Source of the DNA: a virus
Lineage: Duplodnaviria; Heunggongvirae; Uroviricota; Caudoviricetes
DNA: 64,000 nucleotides
Direction: 5' to 3' (one strand)
Virus record (IMG/VR): IMGVR_UViG_2974624538_000001
Coordinates: 46,771 to 110,770 of that record
Shown here: one piece after another, positions 21,158 to 37,606 of the stretch
Position numbering within the stretch: the stretch's first letter is position 1
How the letters are laid out: each line of letters begins with the position of its first letter
The notes under the pieces: model-generated
What the model was told of the DNA's origin: nothing
What the model saw: only the letters and a program-made list of their open reading frames with translations
Database searches by the model: none
Program-made: the position numbers and the translations under genes

Positions 21158-21178
21158 ACAATTGAATATTTAGCGTTC

Positions 21179-21239
21179 GGGTCGGATGCAATCGCTTATC
21201 TATTATGGGAATATAAACGCGATTGCTCTAACATATCCG
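21179..21239 (+). ncRNA. Y RNA-like element 5 (minimal form)
   Basis: GGGTCGGATG-CAATCGC-TTATCT...-GCGATTG-CTCTAACATATCCG. Confidence 0.5.
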
Positions 21240-21251
21240 TTCTAAACTTCT

Positions 21252-21408
21252 AGCCCCTAATGATTTCGGGTCGGATGTTTCTTGGTTATCTTACTGTGAA
21301 TGAGGAGTTCTGGGTTCGAATCCCAGCGGGTCCACTCTTGGGCCTGTAGTTTAACTGGCAAAACGTAAACCCGAGGAACGCTTATATATCCGTCATATCA
21401 TTAGGGGC
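21252..21408 (+). ncRNA. Y RNA-like element 6 with tRNA-like T-arm and extended terminal stem
   Basis: core GGGTCGGATG...GGTTATCT...ATATATCCG (21268-21392) enclosed by a perfect 13-bp inverted repeat AGCCCCTAATGAT/ATCATTAGGGGCT; internal CTGGG-TTCGAAT-CCCAG. Confidence 0.6.
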
Positions 21409-21415
21409 TAAGCTT

Positions 21416-21622
21416 TTGTCTAGAAAAGGAGAGACAATGCCTCGCTACGAGAAGAAGCCGAAGATTAACGCAAACCTTGTGAAGAAGTTTGATGAGGAGT
21501 ATTACCGCGTACTTGACGATGTGCAGATGCGTGCGCTAAAGTTCAAGGGCAACGTGCGGCCGGAAGGCAAGGTTGTTGAAACCAAGACGCACATCATCAG
21601 TTATTACATTGAGGTGGATTAA
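21416..21622 (+). CDS. hypothetical protein
   Basis: ORF with AAAAGGAGAG RBS. Confidence 0.45.
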   Translation: MSRKGETMPRYEKKPKINANLVKKFDEEYYRVLDDVQMRALKFKGNVRPEGKVVETKTHIISYYIEVD

Positions 21623-22059: not shown

Positions 22060-23676
22060 ATGTCTAATGCACTTGGTAAGTTTGCTGCTTCTCAGAAGCA
22101 GGACCGTGTTTCTACTCCTCAGACAAAGCGTACCCCTGGTCGCACGGATGAGGTAAAGAACAACGCGGGCGGGTTTGTGTTCAAGGTAGACGACAAGTCT
22201 CGCCTTGAGCGATTCCTGGTTCTTGGTACTGACAAGGGTACCTACTACGTTGGTGAGCAGAAGTTGACGGCTCAGAACATTTCCTTCCTGAAGGAGATGG
22301 TCCGTAAGGATGAGCGTCTGGTCGTGGACACTGCTGTTGACGTCTCTGTAAATGGTCGTGCGCTTAAGAATTCTCCTGCGCTCTTCGCTATGGCTACGGT
22401 TATGACGGAGGGTCAGGATAAGGCTTACGCTCGTGAGGCCGTTCAGAAGGTTGCTCGTACTTCTACCCACCTGTTCGAGTACGCACAGTACATCGATGAC
22501 CTTGGTGGTTGGGGTCGTGCAAAGCGTCGTTCTGTCGCTGAGTGGTACGAGAACAAGTCTCTGGATATGCTTGCATACCAGGCTGTCAAGTACCGTCAGA
22601 GGAATGGTTGGACGCACCGTGACCTGTTCCGTCTGTCTCATCCTCAGGGTGTGGACCAGGGCGTTGGCAACTTCATCCTTGGCAAGGACGTAGAGTCTGA
22701 GGTGGAAATTCTTAAGGGCTTCGCTGAGATGCAGTCTGCGACTTCGGTCAAGGATGTTATCAGGACGCTGGAGACTTTTAGGAACCTTCCTTGGGAGACC
22801 ATTCCTACTCAGTTCCTCAAGGACGTGAAGGTGTGGAAGACTCTCTTCTACAATGGTCAGCTTCGTGGCCAGGCTCTCATTCGTAACATCACTCGACTCG
22901 CTCGAATTGGTGCGTTTGATGACATGGTTTTCGCAACTGACTACGCGAATGCAATTGCTAACCAGGAAATGATTCAGAAGACTCGTCTTCACCCAATCAA
23001 CTTCCTGAATGCGGTTGTTGTTCACGAGTACGGTCAGATTGACCGTAACGGTTACAGCATGTGGAGTGCCGGACGTAAGAAGGATTGGAAGTCTAATGGA
23101 AAGATTGTGGATGCTCTCAATGAGGGATTCCACATGGCATTCAAGACTGTCGAGCCTTCTGGCAAGAGGACTCTCGTTGCAACTGACGTTTCTGGCTCCA
23201 TGAGTCAGAGCGCCATCGGACTTGACCTTTCTTGCGCTCAGGTTTCTGCGGCTGTTGCCATGACGGTTGCTCGCACTGAGCCTTACAGTGACATTGTTGG
23301 CTTCTCTAGCAGCATTGTTGACTTGGGCATTACCGCTAAGAGTTCTTTTGCCGACGCAATGCGTAAGGTGAGTAACAGGAACTTCGGTGGTACGGATGCG
23401 GCTGCTGCAATTAAGTACGCTGACCAGAAGGGAATTCAGGTTGACACCTTCGTTGTTATCACTGATAACGAGACGTGGGGCGGAAGCCAGAAGCCTTTCC
23501 AGGCACTTAAGCAGTACCGTCAGAAGACCGGAATTGATGCGCGTCTTGCGGTTCTCGGTGTGGCGTCTACGGACTTCACCATCGCTGACCCTACGGACCG
23601 TGGAATGATGGACTTCGTTGGTTTCGATGCAAATGCGCCTAAGGCCCTCGCGGACTTCAGCGCTGGTCGTATCTGA
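22060..23676 (+). CDS. rsr: Ro60-like ribonucleoprotein (TROVE domain plus C-terminal vWA/MIDAS), Rsr orthologue
   Basis: 538 aa; TROVE-like N-terminal region; vWA with MIDAS DVSGSM...TDNETWGG; adjacent to the Y RNA-like array. Confidence 0.8.
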   Translation: MSNALGKFAASQKQDRVSTPQTKRTPGRTDEVKNNAGGFVFKVDDKSRLERFLVLGTDKGTYYVGEQKLTAQNISFLKEMVRKDERLVVDTAVDVSVNGRALKNSPALFAMATVMTEGQDKAYAREAVQKVARTSTHLFEYAQYIDDLGGWGRAKRRSVAEWYENKSLDMLAYQAVKYRQRNGWTHRDLFRLSHPQGVDQGVGNFILGKDVESEVEILKGFAEMQSATSVKDVIRTLETFRNLPWETIPTQFLKDVKVWKTLFYNGQLRGQALIRNITRLARIGAFDDMVFATDYANAIANQEMIQKTRLHPINFLNAVVVHEYGQIDRNGYSMWSAGRKKDWKSNGKIVDALNEGFHMAFKTVEPSGKRTLVATDVSGSMSQSAIGLDLSCAQVSAAVAMTVARTEPYSDIVGFSSSIVDLGITAKSSFADAMRKVSNRNFGGTDAAAAIKYADQKGIQVDTFVVITDNETWGGSQKPFQALKQYRQKTGIDARLAVLGVASTDFTIADPTDRGMMDFVGFDANAPKALADFSAGRI

Positions 23677-25381: not shown

Positions 25382-26008
25382 ATGTATTGGACTAAGAATA
25401 ATATGAGTGGTAGGATACTCCTAAGAAGAAAATTTAGGAGGACTGAGTTGCCTAAGAGAAAGTTTTTTTATGATACCGAATTCCATGAGGATGGTAAGAC
25501 GATTGACTTGATTTCAATTGGCATTGTTCGTGGAGACGGTAAGGAATACTATGCGGTATCATCTGATGCAGATTATCGCAGGGTGTTCGAGAATACATGG
25601 CTAATGAACCATGTAATGAATACTATCGACCATGTAGTGGTTGAAGACATTAATCATGGTGGATATACAATCATTCCAACAGGGCCTTTCGTAAAGACAC
25701 GTGAACAAATTCGAGATGAAATTATCGAATTTGTTATGGAAAGTCAGGACGAATTCCATGACCCTCATGGAGAAGCAAAGGCTGAACTGTGGGCCTGGTA
25801 TGCTGATTATGACCATGTAGCGCTCTGTCAGCTCTTTGGTAAAATGATTGATTTGCCTACCGGATTCCCGATGTTTACAAGAGATTTGAGACAGCATTGG
25901 GAATACAAGGGATATCCAGAGCTGCCAAGGCAGTCTGATGGAGAGCACAACGCGCTTGACGATGCACGCCACAATCTGGTAATGTATAAGTACATGGAAG
26001 GTCTGTGA
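25382..26008 (+). CDS. DEDDh 3'-5' exo(ribo)nuclease (RNase T/oligoribonuclease-like)
   Basis: ExoI FYDTEFHEDG, ExoII WAWYADYDHVAL, ExoIII HNALDDARHNLVMY. Confidence 0.65.
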   Translation: MYWTKNNMSGRILLRRKFRRTELPKRKFFYDTEFHEDGKTIDLISIGIVRGDGKEYYAVSSDADYRRVFENTWLMNHVMNTIDHVVVEDINHGGYTIIPTGPFVKTREQIRDEIIEFVMESQDEFHDPHGEAKAELWAWYADYDHVALCQLFGKMIDLPTGFPMFTRDLRQHWEYKGYPELPRQSDGEHNALDDARHNLVMYKYMEGL

Positions 26009-26921: not shown

Positions 26922-27722
26922 ATGTTCGGTCGTCGCAAGGCTTTCGTCGCTGATAACTCTAAGCGTGTCCTCAAGACTGTTAAGGTTGTCAAGCGTGACC
27001 CTTCTGTCGCCGCTGCACCTGTTGACCTTATTAAGAAGGTTGGTGTTTCTTTCGAGAAGAAGGTTGAGTCTGCTGTTAACCTGAACAAGAATGTTAGTGG
27101 TCCTTCTCGCGGTGTTGTGTGGAATGTAATTGGTCTGCTCGATGAGTCTTACTCTATGGACCCGTTCTTCTATGATGGTACTGTTCAGGAGATTGTTGAC
27201 CGTGTGCTTGCGTGGTCTGCCTCGGTTGATGCTGATGGTCTGGTGCCCTTTGGCGGGTTTGCTAACAGTCACGTTTGGCATGGTGACGTTGACCTGACGA
27301 ACGTTAATAACGTCGTTCAGACGAATAACTGGTCCCCGTGGGGCGGTACGAATCTCGCTGACTCTCTCAAGGCTATCCTTGACATGGTTAAGGATATGGG
27401 AGATGCTTGGCAGGAGAACCCCATCCTTCTCTTCATCGTGACGGATGGTATGCCTCAGAATCAGGGTCTTGTGAAGCAGTACATTCAGGAGCTTTCTCAG
27501 TATCCTGTGTTCATCAAGATTCTTCGGGTTGGCAATGACCTCGGTGCCAAGGCTTTCGTTGAGGACCTTGACAACATGACCACCGGTCGTCTTGTGGATA
27601 ATGTTGAGGCTCCGGATGATGGTCTTTACAAGGGTATGCCCGACGATGCGTTTAATGCTGCTATGATTCATGACATGGACAAGTACGTGAATGACGCAAC
27701 TGCGGTGGGTCTTCTCAGTTGA
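26922..27722 (+). CDS. von Willebrand factor A (vWA) domain protein
   Basis: MIDAS DESYSMD...GGTN...TDGMP; TerY-like layout. Confidence 0.6.
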   Translation: MFGRRKAFVADNSKRVLKTVKVVKRDPSVAAAPVDLIKKVGVSFEKKVESAVNLNKNVSGPSRGVVWNVIGLLDESYSMDPFFYDGTVQEIVDRVLAWSASVDADGLVPFGGFANSHVWHGDVDLTNVNNVVQTNNWSPWGGTNLADSLKAILDMVKDMGDAWQENPILLFIVTDGMPQNQGLVKQYIQELSQYPVFIKILRVGNDLGAKAFVEDLDNMTTGRLVDNVEAPDDGLYKGMPDDAFNAAMIHDMDKYVNDATAVGLLS

Positions 27723-30393: not shown

Positions 30394-30661
30394 AGGGCCT
30401 GCTTGGTTTCGACTTTGCTGGACGGGATATAGACGCAACCCTTCTTGGTCAAAGAAGTAAAACGGGCCAAAACAATAGATGCAAATTCTAACTTTGCTCT
30501 CGCTGCGTAAGTAGCCGGATTTGTCGGGAACCTTGGAACAGAATCCCGACTAGACAAAATGTGTAGATAATGTGTAAGACCCTTCAGTGTGATTGACAAT
30601 GGTTGTAGAACGGATATATGCTAGATAGTGAAGGACAGGGGTTCGACTCCCCTCAGGTCCA
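30394..30661 (+). ncRNA. ssrA: tmRNA (SsrA), tag peptide (A)ANSNFALAA
   Basis: 5' GGGCCTGCTTGGTTTCGAC and 3' GGTTCGACTCCCCTCAGGTCCA form a tRNA-Ala-like acceptor with G3:U70; internal frame GCA AAT TCT AAC TTT GCT CTC GCT GCG TAA (30481-30510) encodes ANSNFALAA-stop. Confidence 0.75.
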
Positions 30662-30678
30662 CACAGAAAGATACGGTA

Positions 30679-31576: not shown

Positions 31577-32458
31577 ATGGGTTACATTGTTTTCGCTAGC
31601 ATCTTCGTTCTTATTGGACTGATTGCTCTTGGAGTCGGCTTTGCCGCACGAAATGAGCCGGGAGTCCGAAGGGGAGCGTTTGGTGTAACTGCGGGAATGT
31701 TTGTACTACTTCTTGTCGTCACTGCGTTTAATTCTGTGACTAGTGTTGGCGCTCGTAATGTTGGTATTCAGACTGCTTTCGGTCGATACCAGGGAACGCT
31801 TGACAATGGTCTTCAGATTATCGCTCCGTGGTCTGAGCACGAGGACTTCTCTACTCAGATTCAGTACCTTGACCTTGATGGTGATAAGGATTCGGATGGC
31901 GCTGAAGTGACTTTCGCTGGTGGTGGTCGCGGTGTTGTGATGGCTACTCCGCGTTGGTACATTAACGAGAAGGATGCTGGTCAGCTCTGGAAGAAGTACA
32001 AGAATTTCGACAATGTTCGGGACCAGCTTGTTCAGTCTTCTGCTAAGGCTTCCTTCCGTGATGTTGTAAAGGATTACGCTCCGAATGAGGCTCTTGTTCA
32101 GACTGGCAAGATTGCCAATGAGGTGAAGGCTAACCTTGAGGCTTCTCTTGCCGACGATGGTGTTAAGATTGATTCCATCAGTATCCGAACGATTCGCCTT
32201 GATGGTCGTAGTCAGCAGTCCCTTGACAAGATTGTTCAGGCTAACAACGACATTGAGCGTGCTAAGGCTGAGCAGGAGCGGGCTAAGATTGATGCCGAGA
32301 CTGCCAAGATTCGTGAGAAGACTGGTGCTCTCAAGCCTGAGGCTCTTCAGCGTTACTGCCTTGACGTTGTGAACAACTGGGATGTCAAGAAGAATGGTTC
32401 TCTGCCCGCAGGCTTTAACTGCAACAGCAGCGTTCCTTTCACTGTTACCAACAAGTAA
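31577..32458 (+). CDS. SPFH/band-7 (prohibitin/stomatin-like) membrane protein
   Basis: N-terminal TM segments followed by an SPFH-like core (IAPWSEHEDF...IRTIRLD) and a coiled-coil tail. Confidence 0.65.
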   Translation: MGYIVFASIFVLIGLIALGVGFAARNEPGVRRGAFGVTAGMFVLLLVVTAFNSVTSVGARNVGIQTAFGRYQGTLDNGLQIIAPWSEHEDFSTQIQYLDLDGDKDSDGAEVTFAGGGRGVVMATPRWYINEKDAGQLWKKYKNFDNVRDQLVQSSAKASFRDVVKDYAPNEALVQTGKIANEVKANLEASLADDGVKIDSISIRTIRLDGRSQQSLDKIVQANNDIERAKAEQERAKIDAETAKIREKTGALKPEALQRYCLDVVNNWDVKKNGSLPAGFNCNSSVPFTVTNK

Positions 32459-34269: not shown

Positions 34270-34459
34270 GTCCTTGTAGCTTAAAAGGAAGAGCGCCGTA
34301 AAAACGGAGACGGGTCATGGTAGGATGGTTTGCGGATGCACCGGGACCGGGCCGTGGTACTTAAAAGGTACATGGTTGGGGAACCTTAACCCCCGGCAGG
34401 GAAGCGCGTATATTCCACGTCTACCTACATTGGTGTGAGTTCGAATCTCACCGGGGACA
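34270..34459 (+). ncRNA. 190-nt composite tRNA-like element (acceptor, D-arm and T-arm modules around a ~115-nt insertion)
   Basis: 5' GTCCTTG-TA-GCTT-AAAAGGAA-GAGC and 3' GTGAG-TTCGAAT-CTCAC-CGGGGAC pair as an acceptor stem; AGACG/CGTCT stem flanks an insert with hairpins and GGATGG/ATATTCC motifs. Confidence 0.4.
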
Positions 34460-34630
34460 CATGGTATATTTGAGAGTAGGTGGCCGGGCCACAATTTGTG
34501 AAAACCATATCATCAATGGCGTCAATTACAAGAATGTAACCGGTCGCGTACTGATGATTACTCGCAAGCTTGTGACCCTTGAAGTTGGACGAACAACGCT
34601 TTTTATTCCAAAGGATAAGGTGGTTCCAGC

Positions 34631-34906
34631 ATGAGTTATATCGTTTGGCGTGACCTTCTTGATATGGACGAGGATGACCCGATTTTCGAGCGGGTCAATG
34701 GACTGGATGATATTATCGTTCAGAAGTATCAGCAAGGTTGGGTAGAAGATGAATTTGGGCAGGGTTGGACAATTGAACAGGCTGAGGAATACATGAAGGA
34801 AAAGGGCTATCCTGCCTTCTTTCCAGAGCCTAGCAGCTACAATACTTTGCTCATCCTTATTCACATGATTAAGAATGGAGAAATTGACCTCAATGGGAAT
34901 CTTTAA
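34631..34906 (+). CDS. hypothetical protein
   Basis: ORF. Confidence 0.4.
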   Translation: MSYIVWRDLLDMDEDDPIFERVNGLDDIIVQKYQQGWVEDEFGQGWTIEQAEEYMKEKGYPAFFPEPSSYNTLLILIHMIKNGEIDLNGNL

Positions 34907-35706: not shown

Positions 35707-36774
35707 ATGGTACACGTTTCGTCAATCTTCTCTGTGGATGACCTGGAGAAGGCAATTGCTGATGGTTGGGTGCGAGTTCAGACCAATGAGGACAACACCC
35801 TGTCTATTTACAATTACACTGAGGAGGCTCAGTATAAGCGTTACTGGAATGAGGTAACGCTGAATTGCCGTGGCTTGATTCTCGACAACTACATGCACGT
35901 CGTTGCCCGTCCTTGGAAGAAGTTTTTCAATTTCGGTGAGCGGCCTCTTCTTTTCAGCACTGACACTCCGGTTGAGGTGACGGACAAGAAGGATGGCAGT
36001 CTTGGCATTCTTTATCGACACCCGATGACTGGCGATTATCGAATCGCTACGCGAGGGTCTTTCCTTTCGGAGCAGGCTCTTCACGCAACGGATGTCTGGA
36101 ATGACAAGTATTCCCATATTGCTCAGCCGTGGGATGGAGTGACTTTCTTGTTCGAGATTGTGTATCCCGAGAACCGAATTGTTTTGAACTATGGTGAGAT
36201 GGATGACCTTATCCTTCTCGGTGCGGTTCACAATCAGTACGGTTGGTATTACGGTCCGAACGAGACTGCCGGGATGCTCAACTGGACTGGTCCAGTCACG
36301 GAGGTCTTTGAGTACCGCACCACGAACGACTGCTTCAAGGTGCATCGCTCAAATGCTGAGGGTCTGGTAATTCGGGCGGGCAGCGAGATGGTCAAGATGA
36401 AGCAGGAGGACTACGTAGCTTTGCACAAGCTGGTTACGGGTCTTAATGAGCGAGCAGTCTGGGAGCGCTTGAAGGATGGTGAGAGCCGTGCTAGTATCTG
36501 TTCAGCACTACCGGATGAGTTCCACGACTTTGTTGACAGGGTTGCAGATGACCTAGAGGCTCAGTTCAAGGAGATTTACCACAGTTCACACGTGGACTAT
36601 TGTAAGATTCTGAACAAGATGCCTGGCAAGTCTTCTATGGCTCAGAGTGAATGGCGAAAGCTATTCGCTTCGTATGCGACAAAGATGCCCAACTATGACC
36701 TTATCTTCAACTACTTGGACAACCGACCGGTTGCTGAGTCGATTTGGAAGATGATTCGTCCGAAGGGTGAGTAA
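35707..36774 (+). CDS. ATP-dependent RNA ligase (Rnl family, T4 Rnl-like)
   Basis: nucleotidyltransferase motif I TDKKDGSLG (KxDG), motif FEIVYPENRIV; 355 aa; followed by a polynucleotide kinase. Confidence 0.6.
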   Translation: MVHVSSIFSVDDLEKAIADGWVRVQTNEDNTLSIYNYTEEAQYKRYWNEVTLNCRGLILDNYMHVVARPWKKFFNFGERPLLFSTDTPVEVTDKKDGSLGILYRHPMTGDYRIATRGSFLSEQALHATDVWNDKYSHIAQPWDGVTFLFEIVYPENRIVLNYGEMDDLILLGAVHNQYGWYYGPNETAGMLNWTGPVTEVFEYRTTNDCFKVHRSNAEGLVIRAGSEMVKMKQEDYVALHKLVTGLNERAVWERLKDGESRASICSALPDEFHDFVDRVADDLEAQFKEIYHSSHVDYCKILNKMPGKSSMAQSEWRKLFASYATKMPNYDLIFNYLDNRPVAESIWKMIRPKGE

Positions 36775-36933: not shown

Positions 36934-37206
36934 ATGATGGATTACGAAAAGATTATTGATGGATATAATGACCTTCGTGAGACATGTCTTGTCATCGCTA
37001 AGCTTAACGATGAGTTGATGGGTCCAGACAGATGGTTGAAGTTTGCCATCCAAGACTCAGACATCACGTTGATGTTTACAGAGCGAGGCGTTGTGTGCTA
37101 TGGTAGTGCTTACACGACACAGACGATGGACAACGAACACTTCAGTTTCATGATTCCGTTCGAGTATCTAGAGGAGTTTGAGGCAAATGCTAGAGATGGT
37201 GATTAA
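36934..37206 (+). CDS. hypothetical protein
   Basis: ORF after hairpin+AAGCTT+GGAGG. Confidence 0.45.
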   Translation: MMDYEKIIDGYNDLRETCLVIAKLNDELMGPDRWLKFAIQDSDITLMFTERGVVCYGSAYTTQTMDNEHFSFMIPFEYLEEFEANARDGD

Positions 37207-37606
37207 TCGGGGGATTCCCGGAAGCGGTAAGTCCACGTATGCTCGAAAGTGGGTCTTGACGCCTGGTACACGACGTGCTAGGGTTAATCGTGATGACATT
37301 CGGAAGCAGCTTTATGGAGTTGATTTCGGGGTTCCGATTGAAGAGACTGTAGTTACGGCAATTGAAGACCAGATGATTCACACTCTCCTTGCAGAGGGAG
37401 TCTCGGTTATCGTTGACGACTGCAATATTTCACAGAAGTACATCAACAGATTCACCAAAATTGCTGAGCAGTATGGTGCAGAGGTGAGTGTAAACCTCAT
37501 CAATGTTGACCTTCAGACAGCAATCAACAGGAATCAGGGCCGTGAGCGTTTTGTTCCTGTCCATGTGATTAAGCGGATGTACAAGCAACTTCAGGAGTCT
37601 CTGTGA
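37178..37606 (+). CDS. polynucleotide 5'-kinase (T4 Pnk kinase-domain-like P-loop kinase)
   Basis: GIPGSGKSTYARKW Walker A similar to the T4 Pnk N-terminus; 142 aa kinase domain only. Confidence 0.6.
   Translation: MRQMLEMVINRGIPGSGKSTYARKWVLTPGTRRARVNRDDIRKQLYGVDFGVPIEETVVTAIEDQMIHTLLAEGVSVIVDDCNISQKYINRFTKIAEQYGAEVSVNLINVDLQTAINRNQGRERFVPVHVIKRMYKQLQESL

Follow-up and report, generated by a model that had tools for sequence, protein, structure and literature searches.

A natural-order, tRNA-shaped, non-decoding RNA gene of Streptomyces phage Gilson and its family in phage tRNA arrays and bacterial Ro60/RtcB operons

The tRNA array of Streptomyces phage Gilson (NC_048742, 128 kb) contains a 190-nucleotide (nt) element that is a real, non-decoding transfer RNA (tRNA)-shaped RNA gene and one of a large family outside Rfam. 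The analysed stretch of DNA, hereafter the window, covers 64 kb of this genome (window position = genome position − 46770). The element lies on its plus strand at 34270-34459, exactly the coordinates proposed by a first-pass annotation of the sequence, and is matched by a covariance model from end to end. Its 5' end sits 1 nt past the discriminator of tRNA-Leu(GAG), and it is annotated in GenBank neither in Gilson nor in any phage record inspected. Since the family is found in phage tRNA arrays and in bacterial Ro60/RtcB operons, a Y RNA-like RNA rather than an intron-bearing tRNA is the most likely reading, and the family RNA probably acts within this functional class, as judged from comparative sequence evidence.

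The family was defined with a covariance model, R1, built from nine short phage seeds with a hand-drawn structure satisfied by every seed, Gilson being outside the seed. R1 matched the Gilson element over its full length with 120.6 bits (E 5e-30); none of the window's 31 true tRNAs scored above 35.5 bits. The 96 loci searched yielded 70 full-length matches, including bacterial full-length members at E ≤ 1e-10. In the 70-member alignment, standard pairs occupied 94.9% of base-pair cells versus 38–46% when the 3' partners were slid by 1–3 columns, and changes on both sides of a pair were seen in 639 cells versus 108–144 in the slid controls; the alignment was fitted to R1, so these numbers lean R1's way, although the margins are still large. 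Covariation was observed in the acceptor, D, anticodon-like, closing, two-base-pair, inner-arm and T helices. Single-sequence folding of the Gilson element was uninformative (z = -0.76), and its minimum-energy fold includes stems that are not conserved in relatives; this fold, which combines a mini-hairpin CCGU/ACGG with an AGACG/CGUCU stem, was rejected because the covariation contradicts it. The AGACG (34308-34312)/CGTCT (34418-34422) stem, drawn around the insertion by the first-pass annotation, is complementary in Gilson but not conserved in relatives, where the conserved pairings are instead CCGT(A) 34296-34300 with (G)ACGG 34309-34313 and GGTAGG 34319-34324 with TCTACC 34420-34425.

A BLAST search of phage genomes detected the element, either 190 nt or ~155 nt long, in 19 Streptomyces phage records; pSt2308 and GiJojo are more distant matches, in which it lies between tRNA-Asp and tRNA-Glu. 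Pattern scans with two conserved core strings, TTGC-NNNN-GCACCG ... AGGGAAGCG, added ~40 viral contigs, many of 100–450 kb and nearly all with the element inside a tRNA array, as well as at least 120 bacterial contigs. The bacterial hosts are Flavobacteriaceae, Cytophagales, Chitinophagaceae, Polyangiaceae and other Myxococcota, together with some Proteobacteria, Planctomycetota and a Crocosphaera. The full-length distinct members number 133, are 148–428 nt long with a complete tRNA frame and come from ~38 phage and ~99 bacterial loci, the bacterial members being mainly Bacteroidota and Myxococcota. The family is defined by a tRNA frame, a fixed A-rich anticodon-like loop and an extra domain with UUGC-NNNN-GCACCG ... 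GGGAAGCG(C)(G/A)UUU, a definition that the Gilson element fits. The GGATGG and ATATTCC motifs, previously noted as reminiscent of Y RNA-like molecules, are not what defines the family.

No Rfam 15 family matched the members from Gilson, the jumbo-phage contig L145 or Aquimarina L157, and the architecture, breadth and SPFH/RtcB link of the family were absent from Rfam 15 and from the literature searched, a search that key reviews lay outside. By-eye resemblances to the GTPase-associated centre of 23S rRNA (H43/H44), 5S rRNA loop E, the TPP riboswitch and, from the GGUAAC and GUAAAC loops of one arm flavour, P12-P14 of RNase P RNA were dropped because they had no Rfam support in those three members. 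Gordonia phage Duffington was rejected as a member: only the D arm and a hairpin (35 nt) match, and the core is missing. The isolated Duffington copy (locus L007, ~1495-1570), a D arm plus a CCGU-GAAA-ACGG hairpin, is 88.6% identical over 35 nt. It is located in a gap between annotated features, and a terminator-like stem with a T run forms its end.

The tRNA frame of the Gilson element is made up of the following parts.

34270-34276, plus strand: 5' strand of the acceptor stem, GTCCTTG, pairing with 34452-34458
34279-34294, plus strand: D arm, GCTT / AAAAGGAA / GAGC, bearing A14, A15 and G18 G19
34426-34434, plus strand: spacer TACATTGGT, ending with U48 (34434), the Levitt partner of A15 (34284)
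34435-34451, plus strand: T arm, GTGAG / TTCGAAT / CTCAC, with covariation
34452-34459, plus strand: 3' strand of the acceptor stem, CGGGGAC, and discriminator A (34459), with no CCA encoded

The acceptor stem, D arm and T arm are present as the first-pass annotation named them, and each covaries in relatives. All seven acceptor pairs covary, with 98.3% of cells paired among the 70 members, as do three of the four D-stem pairs and four of the five T-stem pairs (99.7% of cells paired). The tertiary nucleotides are equally well kept among the 133 members, with A14 in 125, the D-loop GG in 130 and U8 in 122, and the Levitt pair 15:48 covaries between A:U (103/133) and G:C (19/133). The T loop reads TTCRANY in every member, a TTCRA-type loop having been an extraction criterion. 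The discriminator is A in 108/133, and CCA is encoded in just 11/133. The element carries the full canonical cloverleaf in these respects (7-bp acceptor, D and T arms, U8, A14, R15:Y48, G18G19 and the TPsiC loop).

Between the D and T arms, an anticodon-like hairpin is followed by a conserved extra domain of ~115 nt, which occupies the variable-arm position 3' of the intact hairpin.

34296-34313, plus strand: anticodon-like hairpin, stem CCGTA/GACGG with four Watson-Crick pairs and one A.G
34301-34308, plus strand: 8-nt loop AAAACGGA of this hairpin, with no U33
34314-34318, plus strand: linker GTCAT from the anticodon-like arm to the extra domain (family consensus roughly GGNRU)
34319-34324, plus strand: 5' strand of the closing stem, GGTAGG, pairing with TCTACC
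34327-34328, plus strand: GG of a two-pair helix, paired with CC 34415-34416
34331-34340, plus strand: small hairpin TGC-GGAT-GCA, near-invariant
34341-34342, plus strand: CC within GCACCG, paired with GG 34399-34400
34343-34398, plus strand: distal variable arm of the "three-way junction" flavour, with covariation in ten members
34347-34349 with 34394-34396, plus strand: outer helix of the distal arm
34350-34377, plus strand: hairpin A of the distal arm (GTAC..GGTAC)
34378-34393, plus strand: hairpin B of the distal arm (GGGG-AACCTTAA-CCCC)
34399-34416, plus strand: 3' core strand, GGGAAGCGCG TATATT CC, its GG pairing with 34341-34342 and its CC with 34327-34328
34420-34425, plus strand: 3' strand of the closing stem, TCTACC, pairing with GGTAGG

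The stem of the anticodon-like hairpin covaries (CAGU/ACUG, CUCGU/ACGGG, GCCCG/CGGGC). Its loop AAAACGGA, which is not an anticodon loop, is near-invariant in compact phage-type members; in Bacteroidota the loop at this position is longer, with the AAAA and CGNA ends retained. In the extra domain, all six pairs of the closing stem covary (GAUAGG/CCUAUC, UACAGA/UCUGUA, GGCGAG/CUCGUC; 91.3% of cells paired), and both pairs of the two-pair helix vary on both sides (GC to UA or AU). A GGAU/AUCC extension of the closing stem was rejected, being absent in pSt2308. The small hairpin has the family form UGC-RGAN-GCA, with stem pairs UA in 64/69, GC in 66/69 and CG in 63/69 rows and a loop that varies between GGAU, AGAA, GGAA and AGAG, and the adjoining CC/GG pairs are CG in 69/69 rows. 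These pairs flank an internal loop that carries a CGAA-type GCACCGAA in 108/133 members. The invariant strand of the domain reads GGGAAGCGC(G/A)UUU; GGGAAGCG was found in every recovered member, and since it was in every search pattern, its universality is not independent evidence. The CGU(U) stretch of the 3' core and the AAAACG loop form a candidate pseudoknot pair, the central pair of which is C-G in 43 members and U-A or U.G in four.

The distal arm occurs in several interchangeable flavours across the family. For the three-way-junction flavour of Gilson, 94.1% of cells are paired versus 34–57% when slid (ten members), and seven pairs change on both sides, one of them an outer-helix C-G to U-A; both of its hairpins, already recognised in the first-pass annotation, covary in relatives. 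In the jumbo-phage contigs L145, L150, L152, L122 and L153, the arm is instead a GNRA-type hairpin (CUGGUAACAG) followed by GGCCGUAAACUGCC, an order and loop sequences that by eye agree with P13/P14 of bacterial RNase P RNA, as in E. coli M1 RNA; no Rfam RNase P match was found in L145, the one locus of this arm flavour scanned.

An intron-containing or split tRNA that matures to a ~75-nt decoding tRNA, also put forward in the first-pass annotation, is scarcely credible. Default ARAGORN did not call the element, and the Rfam tRNA model matched the T arm alone with 13.8 bits (E ≤ 10). ARAGORN in intron mode called tRNA-Asn(att) and placed an intron of 110 nt at position 31, which speaks for this reading, as does the absence of tRNA-Thr from the window taken alone. 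Across the family, however, intron mode gave 19 isotype labels (one "Stop") and at least 30 anticodons, the intron positions ranged from 29 to 41 among the calls inspected, and near-identical relatives were labelled differently (Gilson Asn, Comrade Arg, L088 Trp, Francob Pro); with isotypes so inconsistent, reading the insertion as an intron is an artefact. The anticodon loop implied by intron mode, with A34 and C37, is not conserved, a canonical 7-nt loop with U33, purine 37 and a conserved anticodon being absent. The intact 8-nt-loop hairpin precedes the insertion, and no part of the RNA is more conserved than the supposed intron. Searches with group I intron and Y RNA models had been suggested in the first-pass annotation: the Intron_gpI covariance model gave no match in the element region at E ≤ 10, and the only Y RNA match was the YrlA artefact described below. 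Group I introns are not known to be as small as the ~115-nt insertion. The element was rejected as the missing tRNA-Thr because three tRNA-Thr genes lie outside the window (Gilson genome 4694-5124), so that no amino-acid specificity is missing in Gilson, and GiJojo and pSt2308 have full tRNA-Thr sets plus the element. A split tRNA is at odds with one contiguous gene with paired ends, and the intron reading is largely refuted. A translation-related mimic, that is, a CCA-tailed, aminoacylated RNA delivered to the ribosome or to another enzyme using aminoacyl-tRNA in the manner of transfer-messenger RNA (tmRNA), fits the perfect 7-bp acceptor, the prevalent discriminator A, the intact elbow, the open 3' end and the location in tRNA arrays, but is nevertheless very unlikely. 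There is no common acceptor identity (1:72 is G:C in 57, A:U in 35 and C:G in 22 members, and G3:U70 occurs in 4/133), no anticodon and no conserved open reading frame (ORF); candidate frames for a tmRNA-like tag were rejected on inspection, as they are not conserved among Gilson, Comrade and pSt2308. Neither ARAGORN, including its tmRNA run, nor the Rfam tmRNA model gave a match, Gilson already has a genuine tmRNA at 30395-30664, and the operon partners are repair proteins rather than translation factors. Like tmRNA, the element is large, has an acceptor and T-arm module of tRNA type and occurs in phages with tRNA arrays, but its D arm is full and it has neither an mRNA-like frame nor a series of pseudoknots. 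With class II tRNAs (Leu, Ser, Tyr, Sec) it shares an extra helix between the anticodon and T arms in an otherwise canonical cloverleaf, and differs in an arm of at least 100 nt with a multi-helix junction and invariant sequence, in an "anticodon" loop of at least 8 nt without U33 and in being missed by tRNA detectors.

The genomic context of the family points to RNA repair. For bacteria, the ORFs within 3.5 kb of the RNA were clustered over 110 loci, and at least one of Band_7, RtcB, RlaP and TROVE was present at 79 of them, always on the strand of the RNA.

55 of 110 loci, always the RNA's strand: Band_7/SPFH, the most frequent neighbour
31 of 110 loci, always the RNA's strand: RtcB
20 ORFs in the 110 loci, always the RNA's strand: RlaP
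12 of 110 loci, always the RNA's strand: TROVE/Ro60 with Ro60-type vWA
9 ORFs in the 110 loci, always the RNA's strand: PF04308 RNase H-like
21 of 110 loci, always the opposite strand: WYL-WCX regulator

An SPFH gene embedded in the rtc locus has been reported independently for P. aeruginosa (PMC13086221). Among 33 phage loci, seven have a same-strand TROVE gene 0.1–4.5 kb from the RNA; in L017, L023, L121 and L135 it begins 105–534 nt downstream of the RNA. Two further observations concern Aquimarina loci. In L157, a Flavo-1 RNA motif (RF01705, 54.3 bits) lies at 1441-1543, ~0.7 kb downstream of the tRNA-framed RNA and about where the downstream Band_7 of the family usually begins, as estimated from the family median offset, which hints that Flavo-1 belongs to the same locus. 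In L160 (Aquimarina brevivitae), Rfam tRNA-Sec scores 50.9 bits (threshold 47) at 423-508, ~1 kb upstream of the RNA and within a small tRNA cluster; possibly this is a class II tRNA picked up by the Sec model.

In Gilson, 31 tRNA genes and one tmRNA lie within the window, and genes for RNA maintenance are scattered across the same array.

22060-23676, plus strand: Ro60 orthologue (gp106), TROVE and Ro60-type vWA (Pfam TROVE E 1.5e-36, vWA_Ro60 E 3.4e-56)
25448-26008, plus strand: Rv2179c-like 3'-5' exoribonuclease
26922-27722, plus strand: vWA-TerF-like protein
30395-30664: the tmRNA
31577-32458, plus strand: Band_7/SPFH protein gp138 (Pfam Band_7 E 3.1e-21), 1.8 kb upstream of the element
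34270-34459, plus strand: the tRNA-shaped RNA element
35707-36774, plus strand: Rnl1-type RNA ligase gp151 (Pfam RNA_lig_T4_1; GenBank product name)
37187-37606, plus strand: polynucleotide-kinase-like P-loop kinase (Pfam AAA_33; GenBank product name)

The Ro60 gene, named merely "RNA-binding protein" in GenBank, is on the same strand with the element downstream, and its product is a candidate protein partner of the element. Consensus promoter and terminator sites between the element and its neighbours showed no excess over shuffled sequence; co-transcription with the tRNA array is hence the simplest assumption.

The suggestion that the element is a YrlA-like tRNA mimic stood in its setting, given the Ro60/RtcB operons and the Ro60 of Gilson, but failed in its architecture. 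In YrlA the tRNA is circularly permuted, leading from the T arm through a closed acceptor hairpin to the D arm, and the paired ends form the Ro60 site (PMC4201824; bioRxiv 10.1101/312249), whereas the element runs in the order acceptor 5' strand, D arm, anticodon-like hairpin, extra domain, T arm, acceptor 3' strand. Instead of the terminal Ro60-binding stem with a 5' GNCGAAN0-1G, the element ends in the acceptor stem, and its CGAA-type motif is internal. YrlA is also expected within about 4 kb of Ro60 on the Ro60 strand; such a spacing is seen in seven other phage loci of the family, and the Gilson element lies on that strand 10.6 kb downstream of Ro60. Its 7-bp acceptor is open and carries a discriminator, the anticodon-like hairpin is present and a module takes the variable-arm position; YrlA has a closed acceptor hairpin, no CCA end and no anticodon loop. 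Both are noncoding tRNA mimics that bacteria and phages encode together with Ro60 and RtcB, both keep the D and T arms, the elbow, the Levitt pair and a CGAA-type motif beside a helix, and they probably share a modular logic of a tRNA-like module plus a protein-binding module. The architecture of the element is therefore the natural-order counterpart of the circularly permuted YrlA. A bona fide member of the YrlA family (RF02553) is a most improbable identity, despite the Ro60 link and the CGAA-type motif. The Rfam YrlA model gave a partial match that extends from the tRNA-Leu T arm into the element's D arm; its 23.4 bits fall short of the gathering threshold, which is 69. YrlA matches to tandem tRNAs are an artefact flagged by the YrlA authors (PMC4201824), and the match at the element is such a tandem-tRNA artefact. 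True YrlA-type candidates, in turn, are present beside Ro60.

21160-21420, plus strand: two unannotated Y-RNA-like genes directly upstream of Ro60, both beginning UUCGGGUCGGAUG

The second of these (~21255-21415) has a 14-bp terminal stem, with a compensatory change in Comrade, and a tRNA-like core circularly permuted to T arm, acceptor hairpin and D arm; its score with the Rfam YrlA model is 27.4 bits, compared with 36.1 bits for the mycobacteriophage RNA in the published YrlA position. The region is kept in 31 Streptomyces phage records, some of which annotate part of it as tRNA-His or tRNA-Ser.

Other Y-like RNAs were compared by description. Deinococcus radiodurans Yrn1 is Ro60-associated and has the natural D-like/T order with a hairpin in the anticodon position (PMC4201824), but its Ro60 site lies in a terminal stem that replaces the acceptor, the D arm is incomplete and there is no extra domain. 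Yrl1 and Yrl2 of Thermus phage phiLo are phage RNAs with CGAA in an internal loop flanked by stems; they adjoin the phage Ro60 gene, and Ro60 binding was shown by experiment (PMC12135203). Unlike the element, they are simple stem-bulge-stem RNAs with no tRNA frame described.

For the Y RNAs of bacteria and phages, the CGAA motif (GNCGAAN0-1G) has been proposed as the signature that Ro60 binds (PMC4201824, PMC12135203), which makes Ro60 the best partner candidate for the family. From this motif and the genomic linkage, Ro60 specifically is quite possibly the protein partner, a claim put at a little short of even. Several observations weigh against it and against a Y RNA-like role. Gilson has its own candidates of the more classical YrlA type beside Ro60, and its Ro60 gene is 10.6 kb from the element. 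In the element itself CGGGA replaces CGAA. Ro60 is near just the 12 bacterial and seven phage loci given above, and a search within 3 kb of the Gilson-like Ro60 of 39 phage loci turned up no family member; because Band_7 and RtcB are the more frequent neighbours, the partner may not be Ro60. The central pair of the candidate pseudoknot is an A.A mismatch in 73 Bacteroidota members, and the invariance of the two core motifs is partly circular, as all members were found through them. In a separate comparison, no correlation was seen between the CGAA/CGGA variant of the element and that of the Ro60-proximal Y-like RNA in the same phage, Comrade having CGAA in the element and CGGA beside Ro60.

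Two other roles were weighed against a Y RNA-like one. The RNA might be a bait or sensor, a tRNA look-alike cut by anticodon-loop ribotoxins whose fragments or nicked form serve as ligand for the divergently encoded WYL regulator or as a dedicated substrate of RtcB/Rnl1. The RtcB/RlaP operons in which the family sits have their WYL regulator divergently upstream in 21/21 cases, the exposed A-rich anticodon-like loop is conserved and the Gilson RNA lies between Band_7 and the genes for an RNA ligase and a kinase. There is also precedent in tRNA halves or nicked tRNAs that signal to RtcR (PMC7790460, PMC10159003), and such a role would parallel the induction of the Salmonella rtc operon by nicked tRNAs. 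The gene is, however, usually inside the regulated operon rather than constitutive, a simple bait would not need a large invariant extra domain, and copies in phage tRNA arrays have no WYL regulator nearby, which together make this role unlikely. An embedded ribozyme or ligand domain that cleaves or rearranges the RNA, for example to supply 2',3'-cyclic phosphate ends for RtcB, would account for core nucleotides that are extremely conserved across phyla and for the link of the family to RtcB, a joiner of ribozyme-type ends. Against these points, no Rfam ribozyme or riboswitch matched in the three members scanned (E ≤ 10), no hammerhead, twister or HDV-like core is recognisable by eye, and in BE-cluster phages the RNA is accompanied by an Rnl1-type ligase and a kinase instead of RtcB; the chance of such a domain is accordingly slim.

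For the preferred Y RNA-like reading, the following path is proposed. The RNA would be co-transcribed with the neighbouring tRNAs, RNase P would cut its 5' end 1 nt past tRNA-Leu, and the 3' end would be trimmed and probably CCA-tailed. The L-shaped, tRNA-like upper half may be recognised by tRNA-handling enzymes, and the invariant core of the extra domain, with its CGAA-type loop in most members, would dock a protein of the repair operon, most likely Ro60. In this way the RNA could act as a tether or gate for Ro60, and possibly for ligase or SPFH proteins, while tRNAs are damaged and repaired in the course of infection. A more tentative proposal, somewhat more doubtful than Ro60 as the partner, is that the family forms an undescribed Y-like class, in natural order, end-processed, possibly CCA-tailed and with a protein-binding module in the variable-arm position, which would be the RNA subunit of a conserved repair particle of Ro60, SPFH (Band_7) and RNA ligase spanning Bacteroidota, Myxococcota, other bacteria and many large phages. 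The architecture of the element may also be the evolutionary precursor of the permuted YrlA, since opening the UGC-GGAU-GCA hairpin and closing the acceptor stem would yield the arm order of YrlA and leave CGAA close to a paired 5' end. By a more speculative analogy, TROVE, vWA, an SPFH protein and a small RNA would correspond to the parts list of the eukaryotic vault.

Further observations were made next to the element. The gp145 ORF (57 amino acids, 34461-34634, plus strand), which has no Pfam match and is syntenic in Comrade and Francob, starts 2 nt past the discriminator, and its sole Shine-Dalgarno-like GGGGA sits within the 3' strand of the acceptor stem, so that folding or processing of the RNA could affect gp145 translation. 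In phage Moab (L002), the coding sequence of the "hypothetical protein" gp140 (1550-1882) is drawn over the RNA gene (1503-1692); its start is probably mis-called, as an ATG at ~1694, right past the RNA, matches the gp145 start of Gilson. A stretch of ~100 nt directly upstream of the element is kept in pSt2308 (L005, ~1390-1494), GiJojo (L006, same range) and L089; this stretch (…GGGCCUCCAUGUGGGAGUACCGCUAGGUGCUGGCAAACCUAGUAGGCACAAGGGAUGAGACC…) is an unannotated gap between tRNAs and may be another structured RNA.

RNAs that mimic tRNA and are linked to Ro60 were already known; what appears to be new is that the arms run in natural order, that the acceptor end is open and that a module occupies the variable-arm position. 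The family represents a widespread third architecture among the tRNA-mimicking RNAs of Ro60/RtcB repair systems and a plausible un-permuted relative of YrlA. For annotation, intron-aware tRNA finders will give its members random isotypes. The invariant core offers a target for learning which features are recognised by Ro60, by RtcB or by the SPFH proteins found in rtc loci. Phage tRNA arrays are now linked to Ro60/RtcB repair systems, and phages whose dozens of tRNAs are accompanied by a tmRNA, Ro60, an RNA ligase and a kinase seem to carry a full kit for tRNA maintenance, the tRNA-shaped RNA included.

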